Assembly (NCBI GenBank): GCA_965261435.1
Contig: CBDHDL010000021.1
Span: 4,379,950-4,443,949, forward strand
Direction of reading: 5' to 3'
Origin: Candidatus Poribacteria bacterium
GTDB taxonomy: Bacteria > Poribacteria > WGA-4E > WGA-3G
DNA length: 64,000 nt
The notes beneath the pieces are model-generated. The model saw only the letters and a program-made list of their open reading frames with translations. It was not told where the DNA came from and searched no databases. Numbering within the stretch: position 1 is the first letter of the stretch; every line of letters starts with the position of its first letter. This document shows, one piece after another, positions 6,651-17,870 of the stretch. The position numbers were made by a program, and so were the translations under genes.

Positions 6651-6701
6651 AAGTTATTCTCCTTGTTTCTGTCGCTTCATTTTAAAAAATATGATGCATT
6701 T

Positions 6702-8734: not shown

Positions 8735-9898
8735 CTATTTCTGTCCATATAATCGTTCAGTTTCTTGATTCAACCAAGTTCCATAATCTCGTGGCATTTC
8801 TTTTATTGGACCGAGTCCATGATCTTCGCGCCACTTAAGCAAAGGATGCTCACGATTTTTCTGCGGTAAATCTATCCGTTTTCCGTGAATCGCAGATTCA
8901 AAAATACCCATTAGTATCTCCATAACATGCCGTCCTTCTTCGCCACTGCACTCATGCTCGCGATCTTCATCAAGAGCATTCACATATTCATCAACAATAC
9001 AATAGTCGTCAGCATCTGCCCCTCTTTCTTTGTCAAAATGATCAGGAAAGATAGGAGTTAGTTTCTCCCAACGGTCATGAGTACCGTCTGGAATAAAATG
9101 TGGTGTAGGCAACCACCAAGATCCTCTGAGTTCAGACCAAAACAATCTACCTTCGCTTCCGTATAGTTCAAGAACATAAGCATCGCTACTAACTTTTGGA
9201 AAGCGCTGTTGTATTAATGTACCAGTAACATTCCCATCAAATTGCAGTGTTGAAGTAGTATATTCACCTACTACAGTCCCCATACCAGCGGGTGATGGAA
9301 TTACATCCTCAGGTATAAGTTGTCTACCACCAGCAGTTGCTTGTGTTACAATACTTCTACAGTGTCCACCGAAACGAAGCATATTGTTGACGACATGTGT
9401 TCCGATGTTCATAAGTCCGTATCCAGCATAATATCCTTTCCCACAAGCATACATATAACGCAATTCACCGATTTTTCCTTCATCAAGGAGCTTAGAAATT
9501 GCTTGCAAGGTTGGACTCACTCTACGTTGATGATGTACAACGATACGAGCATTTTTCTCTTTTGCTTTTGCCAATATAGCATCCGCTTGAACCAAATCAA
9601 CACACAAGGGTTTTTCAACTTCTATGTTCACACCATACTCAAGGACCCGCATACATAGAGGATAGTGCATCTCTGTCGCCGTGGGTATAGCAACAATATC
9701 TGGTGAAGTCTTCTGTATCATTTCATCTAAATCACTGAAATGCGTCGAGACATTAACTATCTTACCAAGTGCTTCTAACCTGTCCTTAACAAGGTCACAG
9801 AGTGCTACGATTTCAGTGCGCGGGTGTGCATAGTATGCTTTCGCTGCTGAAGTTCCTCTACTTCGGCATCCCAATATTGCAACGCGATAAGTCTTCAT
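8735..9898 (-). CDS. Gfo/Idh/MocA family NAD(P)-dependent oxidoreductase
   Basis: 'MKTYRVAILGCRSRGTSAAKAY...EIVALCD' is the Rossmann N-terminus. 'EKPL' motif present. Confidence 0.8.
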   Translation of the reverse strand: MKTYRVAILGCRSRGTSAAKAYYAHPRTEIVALCDLVKDRLEALGKIVNVSTHFSDLDEMIQKTSPDIVAIPTATEMHYPLCMRVLEYGVNIEVEKPLCVDLVQADAILAKAKEKNARIVVHHQRRVSPTLQAISKLLDEGKIGELRYMYACGKGYYAGYGLMNIGTHVVNNMLRFGGHCRSIVTQATAGGRQLIPEDVIPSPAGMGTVVGEYTTSTLQFDGNVTGTLIQQRFPKVSSDAYVLELYGSEGRLFWSELRGSWWLPTPHFIPDGTHDRWEKLTPIFPDHFDKERGADADDYCIVDEYVNALDEDREHECSGEEGRHVMEILMGIFESAIHGKRIDLPQKNREHPLLKWREDHGLGPIKEMPRDYGTWLNQETERLYGQK

Positions 9899-10088
9899 AG
9901 TTGTAAAACCAAATTCCTTTATTTATAAGCGTCAAATCACAATCAAAATTATATTTAATATTAACCTATTGTGCTGATGCTGTCAAGAATTTTGTTTTAT
10001 AAGCAAAAAATAATCTGATTATGCAACATTACACACCCACCGCCATTTTCCCTTTGACTCCCACCGCAAAACCTGCTAACATACCCCC

Positions 10089-10277
10089 ATGCCACAACTC
10101 AAGCTAAAACCGACTCACAAACCAGTCCGAGACTACTACGCCACTTTACAACAATACGAACAGCACGGTGTGACACACGAAGGCGCAGTCAGCGCGCCTT
10201 TTGAAACGTTTCGATTTTACCAGACGCAACAATATACAGTAGAAAAAATGTTACTATTTTTTATTGATATAGTATAA
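10089..10277 (+). pseudogene. N-terminal remnant (~41 aa) of a large Type IIG/ISP-like helicase/methylase restriction-modification enzyme
   Basis: 'KPTHKPVRDYYATLQQYEQHGVTHEGAVSAPFETF' resembles the conserved N-terminus of large N6-methylase RM fusion proteins. The frame then degenerates ('RFYQTQQYTVEKM...*') around 10212. A TTGACT-17-TAACAT promoter-like sequence lies just upstream. Confidence 0.4.
10253..10273 (+). repeat. 21-bp direct repeat ACTAyTTTTTATTGATATAGT (left copy)
   Basis: 20 of 21 nt identical to 14425-14445. The two copies bracket the RM pair, the IIG C-fragment and the GmrSD pseudogene. Confidence 0.75.
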
Positions 10278-10334
10278 TATGATAATGGATAATTGACTGA
10301 AGTCATTATCAAAAATGTCAAGTAGAGGGGAATT

Positions 10335-11252
10335 ATGTCAATACATAACAGCGAAAATAAAAAAACAGATCTTAATAGAGAAAGAAAAGTTAAGAACCGA
10401 AAAGAAAAAGAAGCCACTCGCGGAAAGCATTATTACGCAAATGCCAACGACTTTAGTAAGAAAAATAATCTGCTACCTGCCGAGTTTACAAATGAAATTA
10501 TCTGTGGCGATTCACAGGTCGTCCTCAAGCAACTACCAGACAATTGTATTGATCTTATTTTTACTTCACCACCCTACAATTTTGGATTGGATTACGAACA
10601 AACCGAAGATGCCTTTGCATGGGATTCCTACTTCAAGTTATTGTTCAGTATCTTTGACGAATGTATCAGAGTCCTAAAATATGGGGGACGGATAATCGTT
10701 AACGTTCAACCCTTATATTCAGACTATATCCCAACACATCATCTAATTTCACAGTACTTTATGCGTAAAAAACTGATATGGAAAGGTGAAATTTTGTGGG
10801 AAAAAAATCATTACAATTGTAAATATACTGCTTGGGGAAGTTGGAAAAGCCCGTCAAGTCCCTATTTAAAATATTCATGGGAATATTTGGAAATCTTTTG
10901 CAAAGGGTCTTTGAAAAAATCGGGTGATCCGAAAAATGCAGATATTGACGCTGATTCTTTCAAAGAGTGGGTATATGGAAAATGGACAATAGCACCTGAG
11001 CATAAGATGAAACAGTTTGGACATCCTGCTATGTTCCCTGAGGAATTAGCAGACCGAGTGCTGAAACTTTTCAGTTTCAAAGGGGATGTCATTTTAGATC
11101 CGTTTGCAGGTGTTGGAACAACCTGTCTTTCGGCACTAATGAATCAGCGTTGTTATTTGGGTATAGATATTTCACCAGAATACTGCGAAACTGCAGAAGA
11201 TAGGCTACGAATCTTGATTAGCGCACCTACATCTACAGAGTCTTGTTTGTAG
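10335..11252 (+). CDS. beta-class DNA N4-cytosine / N6-adenine methyltransferase (Type II modification methylase)
   Basis: Motif IV 'IFTSPPY' comes before motif I 'ILDPFAGVGTT' (the PF01555-type order). Lys-rich N-terminus. Confidence 0.8.
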   Translation: MSIHNSENKKTDLNRERKVKNRKEKEATRGKHYYANANDFSKKNNLLPAEFTNEIICGDSQVVLKQLPDNCIDLIFTSPPYNFGLDYEQTEDAFAWDSYFKLLFSIFDECIRVLKYGGRIIVNVQPLYSDYIPTHHLISQYFMRKKLIWKGEILWEKNHYNCKYTAWGSWKSPSSPYLKYSWEYLEIFCKGSLKKSGDPKNADIDADSFKEWVYGKWTIAPEHKMKQFGHPAMFPEELADRVLKLFSFKGDVILDPFAGVGTTCLSALMNQRCYLGIDISPEYCETAEDRLRILISAPTSTESCL

Positions 11253-11265
11253 ATAATACATCCAG

Positions 11266-12006
11266 ATGAACATCCAAATGAAACTTTTCGAAACAAACAA
11301 CAATTCAGAATATGGGTCAGTAGACAATTTGGATTATGAGTCAGTCGTAGATATCTATACAGATAGTATACATTCAATGTATACTATGACTGCAGGACAA
11401 ATTCGAGGCGCAAAAGGTGATCTTGTAGAAAATTTAGTTGATGTTATTGTCAAATTAGCATGGCATGAAATTGGCGGTGAGAAGGACCGGTTAGATATAA
11501 AAAAACACACAGGAAGAATTTCTATTGATGAAGACTATGTAGAAGCCCTAACGCCTGAATATGTTAGAGATCACATTGAACAGAATAAGGGTAAATATAT
11601 TTATAAAGTTGAACTTGATAGAGCGGTTGAGATAGACAATAAGATAATTTTAGGTATAGAATGTAAGTCCTATATAGAAAATGCAATGTTCAAAAGGACT
11701 TTAAAGGATTTTGAATTGATCGTGAAACTGCTTTATCCAGATTTGCTTTTTTGTGTGTTTCAATTTGAAAATAGTCTGGGAGGGGACTACGGAAAAGTAA
11801 GTGAACAAAGACAATTAGGAAGCGAATCAACACATACGTTACTTTCTCACACACCATCGGTAGATTTAGAAATTATAACACTTCTTGATGGTGATAGAAA
11901 ATCAGATAGGCCAATACATAAACGGGAATATTTTAAGGAACTTCCAGTGGAAAACATAGAAATTTGTGTAAATAAATTTAGGAATATACTTAAACCTTTT
12001 GTTTAG
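11266..12006 (+). CDS. putative Type II restriction endonuclease (PD-(D/E)xK-like), partner of the upstream methyltransferase
   Basis: It starts 14 bp after the MTase stop. 'KVELDRAVEIDNKIILGIECKSY' fits a D...(E)xK nuclease core. No other family signal. Confidence 0.4.
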   Translation: MNIQMKLFETNNNSEYGSVDNLDYESVVDIYTDSIHSMYTMTAGQIRGAKGDLVENLVDVIVKLAWHEIGGEKDRLDIKKHTGRISIDEDYVEALTPEYVRDHIEQNKGKYIYKVELDRAVEIDNKIILGIECKSYIENAMFKRTLKDFELIVKLLYPDLLFCVFQFENSLGGDYGKVSEQRQLGSESTHTLLSHTPSVDLEIITLLDGDRKSDRPIHKREYFKELPVENIEICVNKFRNILKPFV

Positions 12007-12011
12007 CTGAA

Positions 12012-12644
12012 AAAACTTTCCTTCCCTTCTACACCTACAACGAAAACGGTACAAACCCAAAAGAGAATATCACCGATTGGGCATTGGCAGAATTCCGAAA
12101 ACACTACGGTGATGATACCATCAGCAAGTGGGACATCTTCCACTATACCTACGGCATCCTGCACCATCCGGAATATCGGGAAAAGTATCAAGCGAACCTT
12201 AAGCGTGATCTGCCGCATATCCCGTTTGCACCAGATTTTTGGGGTTTTGCTAACGCAGGCGCACAATTAGCAGACATACACGTTAACTACGAGTCGCAAC
12301 CGAAATATGATGGTCTCAAATATATTGAAACACCAGACATGCCGATAGATTGGCGCGTTGAAAAGATGAAACTCTCTAAAGACAAAACGCAGTTGGTATA
12401 CAATGATTTCCTGACGATAGACGGTATTTCTGCGGAGGCGTTTGACTATCGACTCGGCACGCGTTCTGCGTTAGAGTGGATTGTAGATCAGTATCGCGTC
12501 AAAACGGATAAACGGAGCGGAATTGTGAACGATCCGAATCGTGCGGATCAGCCACGGTATATTGTGGATTTGATAGGGCGGGTTATCACCGTCAGTTTGC
12601 AGACGGTTGATATTGTGGGCGCATTACCAGATTTAGGTGTCTGA
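12012..12644 (+). pseudogene. C-terminal ~210 aa remnant of the Type IIG/ISP-like RM enzyme (MTase-C / target-recognition region)
   Basis: The frame opens at 11994 inside the end of the preceding gene. 'ENITDWALAEFRKHYGDDTISKWDIFHYTYGILHHPEYREKYQANLKRDLPHIPF' matches the conserved post-methylase region of PglX/MmeI/Type ISP enzymes. The middle of the ancestral gene is missing. Confidence 0.6.
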
Positions 12645-12660
12645 ATCGCGGATTTTCACA
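12383..12660 (+). repeat. direct repeat copy 1 (3' end of the Type IIG-like gene plus 13 bp past the stop)
   Basis: Read directly from the sequence: about 91% identical to 14458-14737, and near-identical over the last ~110 bp. Confidence 0.85.
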
Positions 12661-12743
12661 GATTTCGTAGGTTTTTGTTGGGTTTCGTAAACTCAACCTA
12701 TTGGTGTAAACTTAAGGAAATTAAATCCATTTTTGGATGTCTT

Positions 12744-12773
12744 CAGTCCGGTAGGGACGATATGTTTATAGAA
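12744..12773 (+). repeat. short repeat element GTAGGGACGATATGTTTATAGAAA (copy 1 of 3)
   Basis: 'cagtccggtagggacgatatgtttatagaaa'. The same ~24-nt core recurs at 50843 and 50930. It contains the small hairpin GTCC(C/G)GTAGGGAC. Confidence 0.7.
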
Positions 12774-12824
12774 AGGTTCCTTTGGTAATTTCAATTTATG
12801 TCATAAATGGTTTATTGCGAAATT

Positions 12825-14350
12825 TCATATCTTATCACACTTCGCCATGTTACATGGTCTGCATAGCAGGGTTAAATTTTCCCATTCAGTTAATCCTCCT
12901 TGAGAATAAGGTTTAATGTGATCAGACTCAAGCTGCCGAAAACCTGCCACTCCTGAGAAAACTTGATCGCAGTCTGGGCATACATATCCACCACGGTTAT
13001 GGTTTAAATTTCTGCGAAAATATGATTCCTTCCATTCTATTGGAAAATATCGACTCTGGGGATCACATGTCGGAAGATTAGGGGGTTGTGAACTCAAGAA
13101 AGATTCCTTATTTAACAATCTTTGATAAAAGAAGTTTTGCCATGTCGCATTGTGTTTTTTGTCCTCGTTTACCTCCCCAACGACCCCTCTGTTCTGGATA
13201 ACCACCTTCTGTGCTAAGCCACTTAGTTCCAGCCTGTCGAGGTGCTCGGATAAACCCACCTATTGCATCCCATGCATCATGACTCAGATTCTTAGGGTCA
13301 AGTTCCAATTCAACAGCGGAACCTATCAACAAGGCAGTTTGTTTATATTTATCAACGCTCACTCCTGACAATCCGCTTCCAAGTATTACTTCAATCCACT
13401 TAGCAAAATTTTCAAAATCCTTTTCAAGTCCATTTCCGTATGTAGGGAAAATATTTTCTTTATTTTTTGTGTCGGTAAATTGTAGCTGCGCACAAAAAGT
13501 ATCAAGTGCTTGTTCTGTAGAACCATTAAACGTCATTGCAAGATGTTTCATCGTATCGGGAGTTGAAATTAGGTTGTTCAATTTTTCTCTATGAGAGAAT
13601 GCAAGATACCACAGAAACATTGCTGACGGAGTTTGTCCTTTTGCCTGTGCTTTTCCATCCCACCAGTCAATCCAATATTGTTCGGCGGCAGGAAATTGTC
13701 CCCAAGGATTTTCAACACCCTTTTCACGAGCAGCTTGCTATCATTCGTTGAGCAGATGACGTATCTGCATAAATACCCGCGAGTCGCACAAAATAAACAG
13801 ACTTAGACTCGCTGTAATATGATAGCCTTATATCTTGGGCGGTTAGAGGTGTGCCCCCTTCGTTGATACGTCTGAATATCTCAAGTTTTGTCCCAAGATC
13901 CAGACGCGGTGGTAAGTAAATAATTGTAAGTGGATAATCATTAAAAACTGTTTTAAATTTCTCGGGAAGCTCCGAGAACTTTTTCCCACTATAGTGGACA
14001 CTTTGTGGCGAAAGATAGTTGATGTCATCATCTGCGTCTAAACTAAATTCATCGTTTTCAAATTTCCGAATTGTATTCAAACGTTGCTGTCCATCAATGA
14101 CTTCAATTTTACGACTCTCTTGATCTTCTAAAAAAAAGAGGGCAGGCGTTGTCAGATTATTCAATAACGATTCAATAAATAGAGATTCTTTCCGCTGATC
14201 CCACTGTTCTGCATCACGCTGGTAATCGGGAATGATAATTCGTTTATTCTTTACACGACTATAATTGTTTCTACATTCTCGCTTTGCGTTCGAGTCGCGT
14301 CGCTAACGATTGGGGCAATGTTTTCAACGTTTAAACTCTCTGTGCTCATA
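12825..14350 (-). pseudogene. GmrSD-like Type IV restriction endonuclease (DUF262 + HNH/DUF1524), broken into at least 3 frames
   Basis: The ATG at 14350 gives MSTESLNVENIAP...VV* and then shifts frame to 'KRIIIPDYQRDAEQWDQRKESLFIESLLNN...DGQQRLNTIRKFE' (DUF262 motifs). A middle piece spans 13108-13620. The C-terminal piece 12825-13259 carries the HNH motif 'DHIKPYSQGGLTEWENLTLLCRPCN'. A TTGACA-18-TATTAT promoter lies at 14381-14410 on the minus strand. Confidence 0.65.
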
Positions 14351-14380
14351 ATCCTCTCCATTATATAAATTTCTCTTTAT

Positions 14381-14410
14381 ATAATACTATCTCTGGTTAT
14401 CGTGTGTCAA
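14381..14410 (-). promoter_or_regulatory. sigma70-like promoter (TTGACA-18 nt-TATTAT) for the GmrSD-like gene
   Basis: Minus-strand reading: ttgacacacgataaccagagatagtattat. RBS ggagagg precedes the ATG at 14350. Confidence 0.5.
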
Positions 14411-14424
14411 TCAAAAAGTTGGAA

Positions 14425-14445
14425 CTACTTTTTATTGATATAGTG
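14425..14445 (+). repeat. 21-bp direct repeat ACTAyTTTTTATTGATATAGT (right copy)
   Basis: See left copy. This copy lies 12 bp before the duplicated IIG 3' end. Confidence 0.75.
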
Positions 14446-14457
14446 CAAATTATCTAA

Positions 14458-14737
14458 AGACAAAACGCAGTTGGTATACAACGATTTTCTGACAATAGCA
14501 GGTATTCCAGCGGAGGTGTTTACCTATCGGCTTGGCACGCGTTCTGCGTTAGAGTGGATTGTAGATCAGTATCGCGTCAAAATGGATAAACGCAGCGGTA
14601 TTGTGAACGATCCGAACCGCGCAGATCAGCCGCGGTATATTGTGGATTTGATAGGGCGGGTTATCACCGTCAGTTTGCAGACGGTTGATATTGTGGGCGC
14701 ATTACCAGATTTAGATGTCTGAATCTCGGATTAGGCG
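14458..14737 (+). repeat. direct repeat copy 2: a second, diverged copy of the last ~88 codons of the Type IIG-like gene, plus stop and 13 bp
   Basis: ORF 14471-14722 'MVYNDFLTIAGIPAEVFTYRLGTRSALEWIVDQYRVKMDKRSGIVNDPNRADQPRYIVDLIGRVITVSLQTVDIVGALPDLDV' matches the end of 12084-12644 with several substitutions. Confidence 0.85.
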
Positions 14738-15027
14738 GGTTTCACCAAATCAAAGGTATGAATTTCATTAGGCATTCCCTGGATTTATTGGATTCCCCAA
14801 ACTCAACCTAACCTACACACGAAACTTTGCACAAAGAATCAGGTGTTATGTTCATTTGTGATAAAAAGTGCCAAAAAACCGAAAACTAAATAACCCTGGG
14901 GTGTGTAAAGTTTTTGTCACAATATGATTCTGGTACATAAAGTTCTCGTCAATAGAAATGTGAAATTAGCAACCTTTTCTGTCCTTAGTTTACAGAGCAC
15001 CTAATGGTTATGAAAATACCTTGAAAT

Positions 15028-15110
15028 TCCCAAAACCCCCTTCCGCGTCTTCCGTGTTCTCCACGTAATCCGCCATTCAGACAAAAACGGTGACAATTAC
15101 AATACACACC
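15028..15110 (+). repeat. ~83-bp direct repeat, copy 1 (CAAAAACCCCCTTCCGCGTCTTCCGTGTTCTCC...TTCAGACAAA...ACACACCC)
   Basis: About 85% identical to 15224-15310. A third partial core (TAATCC-N5-TTCAGACAAA) at 15168-15189 gives ~100-bp periodicity. Confidence 0.75.
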
Positions 15111-15223
15111 CCTCTGGAGCTGCCGATTAAACCAAAATCCTCTTATCCTGTCTTTCCTGATAATCCTGGTTCAGACAAAGCACATCATCACACATAAATC
15201 CAAGTCATAATCAGAAACCTAAA

Positions 15224-15310
15224 ATACACAAAAACCCCCTTCCGCGTCTTCCGTGTTCTCCGCGATAATCCGCGATTCAGACAAATAGAGTGACAAAATA
15301 TTTACACACC
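15224..15310 (+). repeat. ~85-bp direct repeat, copy 2
   Basis: See copy 1. Confidence 0.75.
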
Positions 15311-15324
15311 CAAACCTTTACACA

Positions 15325-15358
15325 CTCTTGTGTTATAATGATTCTTGTGTTATAATGG
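15325..15358 (+). promoter_or_regulatory. tandemly duplicated extended -10 promoter elements (cTTGTGTTATAATg x2) upstream of the lipoprotein gene
   Basis: 'cttgtgttataatgattcttgtgttataatggg' contains two TGnTATAAT boxes 17 bp apart, ~60 bp upstream of the ATG at 15416. Confidence 0.5.
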
Positions 15359-16027: not shown

Positions 16028-16270
16028 TTCAACCCAATAGACACGGTAGGTGCGGTTTCCTAACCGCACCGGATTCCACAAGAAACTGAAAATTACCCGA
16101 TTAAATTTTTAAACTTCATATTTGATTGAGAAGTTGGAATAATTCAATCTAATAATGCTTTGTCAAGTCATAAATGATTTGTATATCGGGCGGGGAAACC
16201 CCGCCCCTACGAACAGATCTACTCATCATTTGAGTGTAGACAGAACATTAGGATGGAATTTACCGGATGA

Positions 16271-17542: not shown

Positions 17543-17790
17543 AAAAGACTCCTTAAACAGTGAAATAATGACTTAGTAATATCAGAAGTAGTCGTAACAG
17601 GAATTTATCAGAGAATAAGACTGATGTCAAGGTGTGTTATAGCAAAGAATGTGAAAATTATTAAGCTTTAAGAACTTCGGCTTGCTGGTTTAGATAAGAA
17701 AGAAGCAAACATACCAAGATTGAACTATCAACAGGGTTATTTAGTTTTCGGTTTTTTTGGACTTTTTATCACACCTGTAAATATCAGTTG

Positions 17791-17870
17791 TAGGTCGGGT
17801 AGAGCGAAGCGAAACCCGACACATTTGGTTTCTGTCGGGTTTCGCTTCGCTCTACCCGACCTACGTTATT
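17791..17870. repeat. long perfect hairpin / palindromic element (32-bp arms GTAGGTCGGGTAGAGCGAAGCGAAACCCGACA, 11-nt loop)
   Basis: The arms are exact reverse complements. Each arm also contains GTCGGG...CCCGAC. Related to 47883-47963. Confidence 0.85.

Follow-up and report, generated by a model that had tools for sequence, protein, structure and literature searches.

What history leaves the two ends of one restriction gene on either side of a different restriction-modification (RM) system, together with a broken third defence gene? The question is raised by an island in the genome of a sponge-symbiont Candidatus Poribacteria, at positions 10036-15330 of the window (the 64,000-nucleotide stretch of DNA that was analysed), where an RM cassette sits in a hollowed-out restriction gene. 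The initial annotation had described a ~41-amino-acid N-terminal remnant (10089-10211) and a ~210-amino-acid C-terminal remnant of a large 'helicase/methylase-type', 'Type IIG/ISP-like' enzyme, flanking a Type II methyltransferase (MTase) and restriction endonuclease (REase) pair and followed by a decayed GmrSD-like gene. These features were confirmed at their coordinates, the C-terminal fragment being delimited to 12009-12644 (about 212 codons), and the interpretation placed on them was partly supported. Three features had been overlooked: a second copy of the gene's 3' end (14447-14732), a scrap of its interior (10212-10242) and a junction motif that occurs twice. The island is laid out as follows.

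10036-10088, plus strand: conserved block 5' of the DrdV-like gene, with its promoter; homology with paralogous and allelic loci reaches no further left
10054-10082, plus strand: promoter of the DrdV-like gene, TTGACT-N17-TAACAT (consensus match only)
10089-10211, plus strand: N stub, first 41 codons of the resident gene (DrdV-like, Type IIL/IIG); 97.6% amino acid identity to locus L090
10212-10242, plus strand: frameshifted interior scrap, about residues 229-239 ('FERSDFTRRN'); exact 16-20-nt matches to intact genes
10243-10273, plus strand: junction motif copy a, ACTATTTTTTATTGATATAGT core; overlaps a promoter-like site, TTGATA-N18-GATAAT, at 10264-10293 (consensus match only)
10335-11252, plus strand: Type II beta-class DNA methyltransferase, 305 amino acids; PF01555 E 8e-41, PADLOC MTase_II E 4e-65
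11266-12006, plus strand: Type II restriction endonuclease candidate, 246 amino acids; PADLOC REase_II PDLC03499 E 2e-58
12009-12644, plus strand: C stub 1, end of a DrdV-like gene, ~212 codons (residues ~811-1023); Type_ISP_C E 2e-62
12645-12824, plus strand: 3' flank belonging to C stub 1; differs from the resident flank
12825-13259, minus strand: HNH endonuclease open reading frame (ORF), 144 amino acids, open; PF01844 E 3e-12
13108-14361, minus strand: DUF262 pseudogene (GmrSD_N-only); two frameshifts, near 13735 and 14260
14381-14410, minus strand: promoter-like site for the DUF262 gene, TTGACA-N18-TATTAT (11/12, consensus match only)
14414-14444, plus strand: junction motif copy b; directly abuts C stub 2
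14447-14722, plus strand: C stub 2, 3'-terminal 91-92 codons of the resident gene (residues 933-1023); collinear with the L090 gene end
14723-15330, plus strand: resident 3' flank with interspersed repeats; common to L090

A scan of the island for promoters and terminators found sites no commoner than in shuffled sequence. The 3' flank of C stub 1 also holds a small interspersed repeat (12740-12774) and a diverged copy (12674-12700) of a motif that lies downstream of the resident gene as well. An inverted repeat, TTACACACCC / GGGTGTGTAA, brackets the island (10025-10038 and 14899-14912); it was considered as a pair of transposon ends and set aside, because its arms lie in interspersed repeats and are present in the sister-strain flank too.

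The displaced gene belongs to a family whose intact proteins have ~1022-1023 amino acids, and the two pieces that frame the Type II pair are its two ends. Of 80 related Poribacteria loci, about 70 have these ends in one open ORF of ~1022 codons, in the same frame and 2430-2475 nt apart, which bears out the proposal to the extent that both pieces belong to one RM gene family, not to unrelated protein families; in the window they are 1920 nt apart. DrdV is a single-chain RM enzyme of Type IIL (Shen et al., bioRxiv 10.1101/2021.01.06.425610). Residues 22-1018 of the full-length protein of locus L002 align with its residues 15-1025 (PDB 7LO5, E 2e-198), and the L002 protein covers positions 6-1012 of 1024 of the PADLOC model REase_MTase_IIG (PDLC03621). 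The intact alleles of L002 and L090 and DrdV (PDB 7LO5/7LVV) are alike end to end (1022 versus 1029 amino acids), whereas the window holds only stubs of what in DrdV is a whole enzyme. By Pfam, intact alleles comprise a coupler, an N6-adenine MTase and a Type_ISP_C recognition domain, with no helicase domain found; their N-terminal region looks like a nuclease domain, judging from a D...EAK pattern in the translation. Homology to the Type ISP enzymes LlaGI and LlaBIII extends over the coupler, the MTase and the C-terminal recognition domain (E 1e-143 to 9e-158), but the alignment begins only at residue 575 or 740 of those proteins, past the N-terminal Mrr-like nuclease and helicase-like ATP motor, and the Poribacteria family is without the helicase domain. 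The description 'helicase/methylase-type' is therefore not sustained, and of 'Type IIG/ISP-like' the first half stands: the family is Type IIL/IIG, DrdV-like throughout, and with no helicase it is not Type ISP.

The N stub matches residues 1-41 of L090 (tblastn E 2e-21) and is 88-95% identical to many other full-length genes. Protein identity to L090 is 93% for C stub 1 (over residues 817-1023) and 94.5% for C stub 2 (over residues 933-1023); against Type_ISP_C, C stub 1 covers profile positions 146-342 of 342, and C stub 2 scores E 4e-17. Residues about 42-810 are absent from the window except for the ~10-codon scrap, so that about 2.3-2.7 kb of the interior is missing, where a loss of roughly 1 kb had been estimated. 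Since only stubs are present (residues 1-41, about 229-239, about 811-1023 and 933-1023), no Type IIL enzyme would be made here. A gene of this type would encode nuclease, coupler, N6-adenine MTase and recognition domains in one uninterrupted ORF; the window locus has none and is a carcass, not a gene.

A stand-alone Type_ISP_C (PF18135) family had been suggested by the best 120 protein matches to the C fragment, all of 186-369 amino acids. This idea was dropped because the five contexts inspected consisted of three frameshift-split full-length genes and two composite stubs. Short 'Type_ISP_C-only' ORFs annotated in Poribacteria are thus stubs or split genes and no new protein family. Many other short Type_ISP_C-only matches sit on short contigs.

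Between the N stub and C stub 1 lies, as initially annotated, a Type II pair that is apparently intact. The MTase covers positions 1-220 of 221 of PF01555, has SPPY and FAGVGT motifs in its translation, includes both N4-cytosine and N6-adenine MTases among its PDB relatives, and has a dN/dS of 0.07 against L008. The REase candidate, co-oriented with the adjacent MTase, covers positions 19-238 of 241 of PDLC03499 and has about 150 relatives; at least some come from Poribacteria assemblies, and NCBI names two 'restriction endonuclease'. PADLOC is the only library to recognise it, with no sequence match in Pfam, NCBIfam or PDB, and by eye it appears to be PD-ExK-type. The same MTase family is its partner in L008, L083-L086 and L088, and in L083-L086 the module lies outside any shell. 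The predicted Type II system is probably active at this locus, and both the Type IIL enzyme and the DUF262 gene would be dead.

The decay of the GmrSD-like gene was borne out: the DUF262 gene is collinear with an intact 415-amino-acid relative (P0242) in three pieces in frames -2/-1/-2, and has therefore suffered two frameshifts. Its DUF262 domain (PF03235, E 1e-14) has IPDYQR and DGQQR motifs, and its best PADLOC model is NsnA. With the GmrSD (DUF262-DUF1524) Type IV systems it has in common the N-terminal DUF262 domain with its DGQQR motif; in GmrSD a DUF1524 His-Me nuclease is fused in the same protein, whereas in the window an HNH nuclease is encoded by a separate open ORF that overlaps the end of the DUF262 gene. 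The intact relatives P0242, P0244 and P0245 (~410-415 amino acids) are likewise GmrSD_N only, and DUF1524 is absent from all three. Among the loci compared, the DUF262/HNH segment was seen in the window only. HNH and DUF262 were the only domains found in 12645-14446, with no transposase or integrase.

What stood at this site beforehand was addressed through orthologous loci. None of the first 80 loci had the window flanks, and orthologous loci were reached only via the neighbouring Gfo/Idh/MocA gene. They establish a series of three alleles: an empty site in a more distant relative (L092), where the same two neighbouring genes are just 240 nt apart; one intact 1023-amino-acid gene in a sister strain (L090), whose flanks are 97-98% identical to those of the window; and the composite of the window itself. 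The comparison upholds the view of the locus as a hotspot of turnover. Window positions 9924-10212 and 14447-15337 align collinearly with the L090 gene ends and flank, with 93-100% identity per 60 nt from 14522 on; in the resident 3' flank the window has an extra 55-nt repeat (14843-14897) and is without 120 nt at 15332. The alignment shows C stub 2, judged by its collinearity into the L090 flank, to be the resident gene's own 3' end in its original position, a role that had been given to 12009-12644. The carcass therefore spans 10089-14722, with the DUF262 gene inside it and not directly after it, and the L090 and L092 comparisons indicate that 10212-14446 is all nested imported DNA, 12009-12644 included.

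The DUF262/HNH segment is bracketed by a direct repeat of 286 nt, 14447-14732 being a second copy, 92% identical, of 12369-12654; the repeat is the last 286 nt of the DrdV-like gene and is present once in L090. C stub 1 has only ~90% nucleotide identity to L090, against 97-98% for the flanks, and per 60 nt it is a patchwork, 82-98% identical. Within the repeat the site patterns change (Fisher p = 0.0007); beyond it comes a third switch, which involves three sites. Because of the patchwork, a crossover inside the repeat is suggestive only.

The composite of N stub, MTase, REase and C stub recurs, junctions included, at two further loci that are not orthologous to this one and at which relatives have the gene intact. 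In L088 it is 95% identical over window positions 10036-12631, with identical joints, and is orthologous to the intact gene of L002 (flanks 93% identical); identical joints are also found in L087. The composite of L008 has the same right joint, and only its downstream flank is in common with the intact-gene loci L019 and L025. The window flanks are unrelated to those of L088 and L008. Identity between the window and L088 is mosaic, at 98-100% in the cassette, 93-96% on the N side and 85-91% in C stub 1, with the drop at the junction. Between lineages overall, the stubs reach 85-94% identity, against 98-100% for the cassette.

At the left joint the interior scrap is joined to the N stub at the microhomology TTTGAA and is followed by short cassette-side sequence; its exact matches lie about 700 nt into intact genes. 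The joint of N stub and scrap is repeated in L088, and the same breakpoint is found in L004. Left joints fall at gene residues about 210 (L006), 236 (window, L004 and L088) and 267 (L008), in each case followed by the same motif, of 21-31 nt, which occurs twice in the window versus 0.02 expected occurrences. At the right joint C stub 1 begins 2 nt past the REase stop. A scan of metagenome_contigs for the motif gave one match, in unrelated coding sequence.

These observations are probably best explained by a strain-variable defence locus at which the interior of the resident gene was replaced by nested imported DNA via homologous recombination. A single-chain DrdV-like gene for ~1023 amino acids would have stood here, of which only the promoter, the first 41 codons and the last ~92 codons are left in place. 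About 2.7 kb of it would have given way to 4.2 kb of imported DNA in three parts, namely the Type II system, with its own promoter-like site in the conserved 31-nt junction motif; the last 212 codons and 3' flank of another DrdV-like copy, travelling with the Type II system; and the convergent, dead DUF262 gene with its open HNH ORF. As mechanism we infer homologous recombination (allelic replacement or ectopic gene conversion), with the ends of DrdV-like genes as arms; each exchange may have run from intact to composite or the other way. These genes are present in many diverged copies per Poribacteria genome, and such multi-copy arms would account for the Type II cassette lying in no fewer than three DrdV-like shells that are not orthologous. 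Next, the DUF262/HNH segment would have entered by an insertion with long target duplication, which doubled 286 nt at the 3' end of the gene, and the differing left breakpoints would reflect nested decay. A search for donor sequence for C stub 1 or the DUF262/HNH segment found none.

The local event initially envisaged, in which the Type II unit was inserted by illegitimate recombination, the interior was deleted and 12009-12644 is the resident 3' part, is right in placing the pair between the ends of the gene, and accords with the resident character of the N stub (96% nucleotide identity to L090) and with microhomology at the joints (TTTGAA and CAAC). As a one-off it is nevertheless very unlikely, since other genomes have, at other loci, identical joints (L088 and L087) or the same right joint (L008), the 3' end of the resident gene lies at 14447-14722, and C stub 1 falls below the flanks in identity to L090. 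That repeats falsely joined two loci in a chimeric assembly is scarcely conceivable: the 286-nt repeat, with 92% identity within the island, and the restriction of the DUF262/HNH segment to the window would fit such an error, but three independent assemblies show the composite joints, a single sister-strain contig is collinear with both outer flanks, and the repeat copies differ at about 8% of sites.

The motif at every left joint and beside C stub 2 could instead point to a site-specific process, the 31-nt motif being the attachment or recombination site of a mobile cassette delivered, integron-like, by a recombinase encoded elsewhere. Its two occurrences in the window, its presence at the left joints of L006, L008 and L088 (with the left half in L004) and against C stub 2, and its A5...T5 near-palindrome agree with this reading, which is improbable all the same: there is no recombinase gene in or beside any composite, shell-free modules have a similar sequence, 230 nt upstream of their MTase, that reads like a -35 region, the gene-side breakpoints vary as nested deletions would make them, the right joint (REase stop/residue ~811) has no motif, and the one metagenome scan yielded no related match. 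It is also quite unlikely that C stub 1 has been kept for a function, as a ~186-amino-acid protein (TTG start at 12084) that aids the Type II system or decoys DrdV-like enzymes, even though all four composites have its frame open up to the natural stop, over 186 codons or more, dN/dS is 0.08-0.11, and gene callers annotated ORFs of 186-189 amino acids there. The low dN/dS was rejected as evidence of function because the 92-codon stub 2, which is certainly dead, gives a similarly low value of 0.13. The stubs, moreover, do not cluster by composite status and are mosaics of paralog-like tracts, as conversion from intact paralogs would give; the piece amounts to the last ~200 profile positions of a target-recognition domain; and a scan for a promoter or ribosome-binding site found neither.

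RM replacement at a fixed locus is well known, and it is usually from flanking housekeeping genes that its mechanics are deduced. In the present case, under the replacement by homologous recombination favoured above, the homology on either side of the incoming cassette is provided by the remains of the displaced gene, a member of a large paralogous family. Both allelic substitution of RM genes and insertion with long target duplication have been described (Furuta, Abe and Kobayashi 2010, PMC2853133). As in the former, close relatives of the window have the same flanks and differing RM content; as in the latter, defined by direct repeats >30 bp that are single-copy where the insert is absent, the insert is bracketed by a fitting repeat, of 286 nt. 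The inserts of that study are without mobility genes, and so is 12645-14446. The survey took both R and M genes to be in the insert, however, whereas the window insert holds a DUF262 pseudogene and an HNH ORF and no MTase. Unlike those cases, too, the substituting DNA lies inside the shell of the gene that was destroyed, and because this shell comes from a multi-copy family, the same composite appears at several non-orthologous loci. The locus is thus one of ordinary immune-gene turnover, the new twist being the same filled shell at other copies of the gene family.

A more speculative reading, possible but somewhat doubtful, is that the Type II cassette is a parasite of a rival restriction gene family, hopping between DrdV-like paralogs or alleles by gene conversion. 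The stubs of the destroyed gene would serve as portable homology arms, so that each intact family member would be a potential landing site. If true, this would be a homing-like mobility of RM systems that needs no recombinase of its own, and if the cassette spreads by paralog conversion, a defence system would move within and between genomes while knocking out its competitors. Sponge symbionts are rich in defence genes (PMC5649159) and, if so, paralog conversion could help explain the fast turnover of their RM systems.

The elements that the initial annotation had named for this island were all found in the ORF listing and domain scans of the window, as listed here.

10089-10211, + strand: N stub of the large RM gene, a 41-codon ORF start (ORF listing)
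10335-11252, + strand: beta-class DNA methyltransferase (MTase; PF01555, E 8e-41)
11266-12006, + strand: restriction endonuclease (REase) candidate, 246 aa (PADLOC REase_II model PDLC03499, E 2e-58, the sole match)
12009-12644, + strand: C stub 1, a 212-codon open frame aligned to the final 197 positions of Pfam Type_ISP_C (E 2e-62)
12825-14361, - strand: DUF262 (GmrSD_N) and HNH matches (domain scans)
12825-13259, - strand: HNH ORF, 144 aa, separate and open

That inventory was correct as far as it went, and lacked a repeated C-terminal end, a 31-nt motif and a scrap of gene interior. C stub 1 begins 2 bases past the REase stop codon, and the 286 nt at its end recur at 14447-14732 with 92% identity (repeat search). 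The 31-nt motif (core ACTAYTTTTTATTGATATAGT) occurs twice, against 0.02 occurrences expected by chance: right after the N stub (10243-10273), and directly before the second C-terminal copy, C stub 2 (14414-14444). The 31 nt from the N stub to the first motif open with a frameshifted scrap, 'FERSDFTRRN' (residues ~229-239), which has exact 16-20-nt matches about 700 nt inside intact copies of the stubs' parent gene. The MTase has a basic N-terminal extension of about 50 aa, and a palindrome just 3' of its promoter-like site (TGACT-GA-AGTCA, 10299-10310) might be an operator for autoregulation; it is not kept in the related locus L008.

A scan with the C-terminal fragment, covering one genome per species, confirmed at least 574 relatives, with more than one copy in several genomes. 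The 80 loci that were kept include 74 with Poribacteria in the title and a further five from MAG records labelled uncultured bacterium or Owenweeksia. At about 70 of these loci, the N-terminal fragment lies 2430-2475 nt upstream of the C-terminal fragment and in frame with it, and a single open frame of about 1022 codons contains both; the fragments therefore belong to one gene family, as had been proposed, and not to unrelated ones. The full-length protein has ISP_coupler, N6_Mtase/Eco57I and Type_ISP_C domains, and a domain scan found no helicase domain in it. Its alignment with the Type IIL enzyme DrdV runs from one end to the other (PDB 7LO5, E 2e-198), whereas the Type ISP enzymes LlaGI and LlaBIII align with the family only from their residue 575 or 740, past their motor. 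DrdV, which consists of a single chain, methylates one strand, and it cuts DNA once several bound copies have assembled (bioRxiv 10.1101/2021.01.06.425610). Because a helicase domain is absent and the alignment with DrdV is end to end, the decayed gene is, judged by its sequence, a DrdV-like Type IIL/IIG gene; the earlier Type IIG/ISP helicase/methylase label holds for a large single RM gene and not for a helicase-type ISP enzyme. Short Type_ISP_C-only proteins, dominant in the protein search, were considered as a separate family; those whose context was inspected proved to be full-length genes split by frameshifts or stubs of composites, and many others are on short contigs. The family is large and multi-copy in Candidatus Poribacteria: chromosome OY282383.1 has at least eight DrdV-like genes, including a tandem array of four (~1022-aa genes at L044:4147-17575, L047:7547-13819 and L077:4223-10630). 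A promoter block of about 50 nt is common to all these genes, with a -10 box ending about 7 nt before the ATG, and this short distance may reflect leaderless transcripts.

The orthologous locus was reached in two relatives through the neighbouring Gfo/Idh/MocA gene (8735-9898). In a sister strain (L090), with flanks 97-98% identical to the window, a single intact 1023-aa DrdV-like gene stands between the same two neighbours; in a more distant relative (L092), where the neighbour is 86% identical in protein, only 240 nt are present at the site. The locus thus has three allelic states, empty, intact and composite, and the immune-gene turnover first suggested here is borne out by this series. By alignment to L090, the promoter and the N stub belong to the resident gene (96% nucleotide and 97.6% amino acid identity), and C stub 2 (14447-14722) is collinear into the L090 downstream flank, with 93-100% identity per 60 nt from 14522 on. 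C stub 1, in contrast, reaches only about 90% identity to L090, and the flank on its 3' side differs. The N stub and C stub 2 are therefore what remains of the resident gene, and C stub 1, previously taken for its C terminus, is not; 4.2 kb (10212-14446, including C stub 1) stands in place of about 2.7 kb of resident interior. Another variable RM site is found 3 kb away from the island, with nothing in it in the window (6664-6701); it holds a solitary BglII-like endonuclease ORF in L090 (13198-13989) and an N6_N4 MTase, a 309-aa ORF and a 2OG-Fe(II) oxygenase in L092 (13305-15987).

The two copies of the 286-nt repeat mark the limits of the DUF262/HNH segment. Intact DUF262 relatives of 410-415 aa came out of an exhaustive HMMER search; with one of these, the database protein P0242 (68% identical), the gene is collinear in three pieces (14349-14260, 14260-13739 and 13731-13111) in frames -2/-1/-2. 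It therefore has two frameshifts, neither in a long homopolymer, and we infer that it is dead. The initial description of a decayed GmrSD-like gene was right as to decay; however, unlike GmrSD, the intact relatives have GmrSD_N only, with no DUF1524 in a domain scan, the HNH domain is in a separate ORF, and the top PADLOC model is NsnA. At informative sites among L090 and the two repeat copies, copy 1 sides with L090 at 8 sites versus 2 in columns 33-100, and copy 2 at 9 versus 0 in columns 101-203 (Fisher p = 0.0007). This partner switch is suggestive of a reciprocal crossover in the repeat, and so of the type of insertion with long target duplication already described for RM genes (PMC2853133), but a further three-site switch and the patchwork of copy 1 weaken that reading.

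The block of N stub, scrap, motif, MTase, REase and C stub recurs in other assemblies, and a misassembly is extremely improbable. The composite at L088 is 95% identical across 10036-12631 with identical joints; that at L087, at a contig end, is 93% identical; and that at L008 is 80-88% identical, with the same right joint and a left joint at a different gene residue. Intact counterparts exist: L002 is orthologous to L088 (flanks 93% identical), and L019 and L025 have their downstream flank in common with L008. The window flanks are unrelated to those of L088 and L008, the upstream oxidoreductases being just 23% identical, so that identical joints recur at non-orthologous loci; a purely local insertion is very unlikely. 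Homology between the loci starts about 53 nt 5' of the ATG and stops about 13 nt short of the stop codon, and its limits are those of the DrdV-like gene. L004 and L006 have scars of that same left joint 3' of intact genes. On the gene side the breaks are at residues ~210, 236 and 267, each followed by the same motif, as would be expected from nested deletions in a decaying 5' part. A site-specific cassette system acting at the motif would also place it at the joints, and is unlikely; the MTase and REase occur without any shell of the DrdV-like gene in L083 and L084, and in such modules motif-like sequence reads as a promoter -35 region, 230 nt upstream of the MTase. L085 (3762-7693) and L086 (3145-6309) show an unusual Type II layout, in which a member of this MTase family precedes three or four REase-like paralogs in tandem (each of 229-230 aa, with 53-76% identity to the window REase).

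Identity along the composite is mosaic. When the window is compared with L088, identity is 98-100% in the cassette (10640-12010), 93-96% on the N side and 85-91% in C stub 1, and the drop is located at the joint of REase stop and C stub. The C stubs of the composites do not group together, each being about as near to intact paralogs as to other stubs, and C stub 1 is a patchwork with 82-98% identity to L090 per 60 nt. Such a pattern would be produced by exchange with intact paralogs, which can extend as far as the joint and no further. Retained function of the C stub might be read from the low dN/dS of C stub 1 (0.08-0.11), but the dead 92-codon C stub 2 is equally low (0.13), so this value is uninformative, and a functional C stub is improbable. 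The Type IIL enzyme of this locus is presumably dead. For the Type II pair, open frames and a low dN/dS (MTase 0.07, REase 0.20) make activity probable.

Several short interspersed repeats of the window (12740-12774; 14843-14897; 15032-15111 / 15231-15311; 16044-16075; 17788-17864) are common to many Poribacteria loci at 80-100% identity, often beside DrdV-like genes; the sister strain lacks the 55-nt copy at 14843-14897. Pieces with the end TTACACACCC form an inverted pair around the island (10025-10038, 14899-14912). A sequence of about 25 nt, TATAATAACGTGAGTTTGATAATTATA, is present at several loci in inverted pairs with a spacing of about 150 nt (L006:11236-11270; both strands of L003, L007, L010, L017 and L039), resembles a miniature inverted-repeat element, and in L006 adjoins the junction motif. 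The region just 3' of DrdV-like genes is variable (L002:10816-12096; L087:1528-3543; L004:10912-11943; L053:10863-12296), containing a TnpB/Cas12f-like gene, an OLD/GajA-like ATPase, a NucC-like PD-DExK nuclease or an LmuA/protease-like gene; the L053 insert likewise lies between copies of a 143-nt repeat of the DrdV-like gene 3' end.

The composite probably had a single origin through illegitimate joins (the left joints show the microhomologies TTTGAA and CAAC), and would later have been handed between DrdV-like genes by homologous recombination via the gene ends; the DUF262/HNH segment could have entered through a crossover in the gene 3' end. RM genes are known to be abundant in sponge symbionts, Poribacteria among them (PMC5649159), and the process is of a kind already known, defence-gene turnover through allelic substitution (PMC2853133). 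What is unusual is that the shell of the displaced gene is itself the framing homology and that, because this gene is multi-copy, the composite is at three or more paralogous loci. Homing of an RM cassette into rival restriction genes by gene conversion is a tentative possibility.
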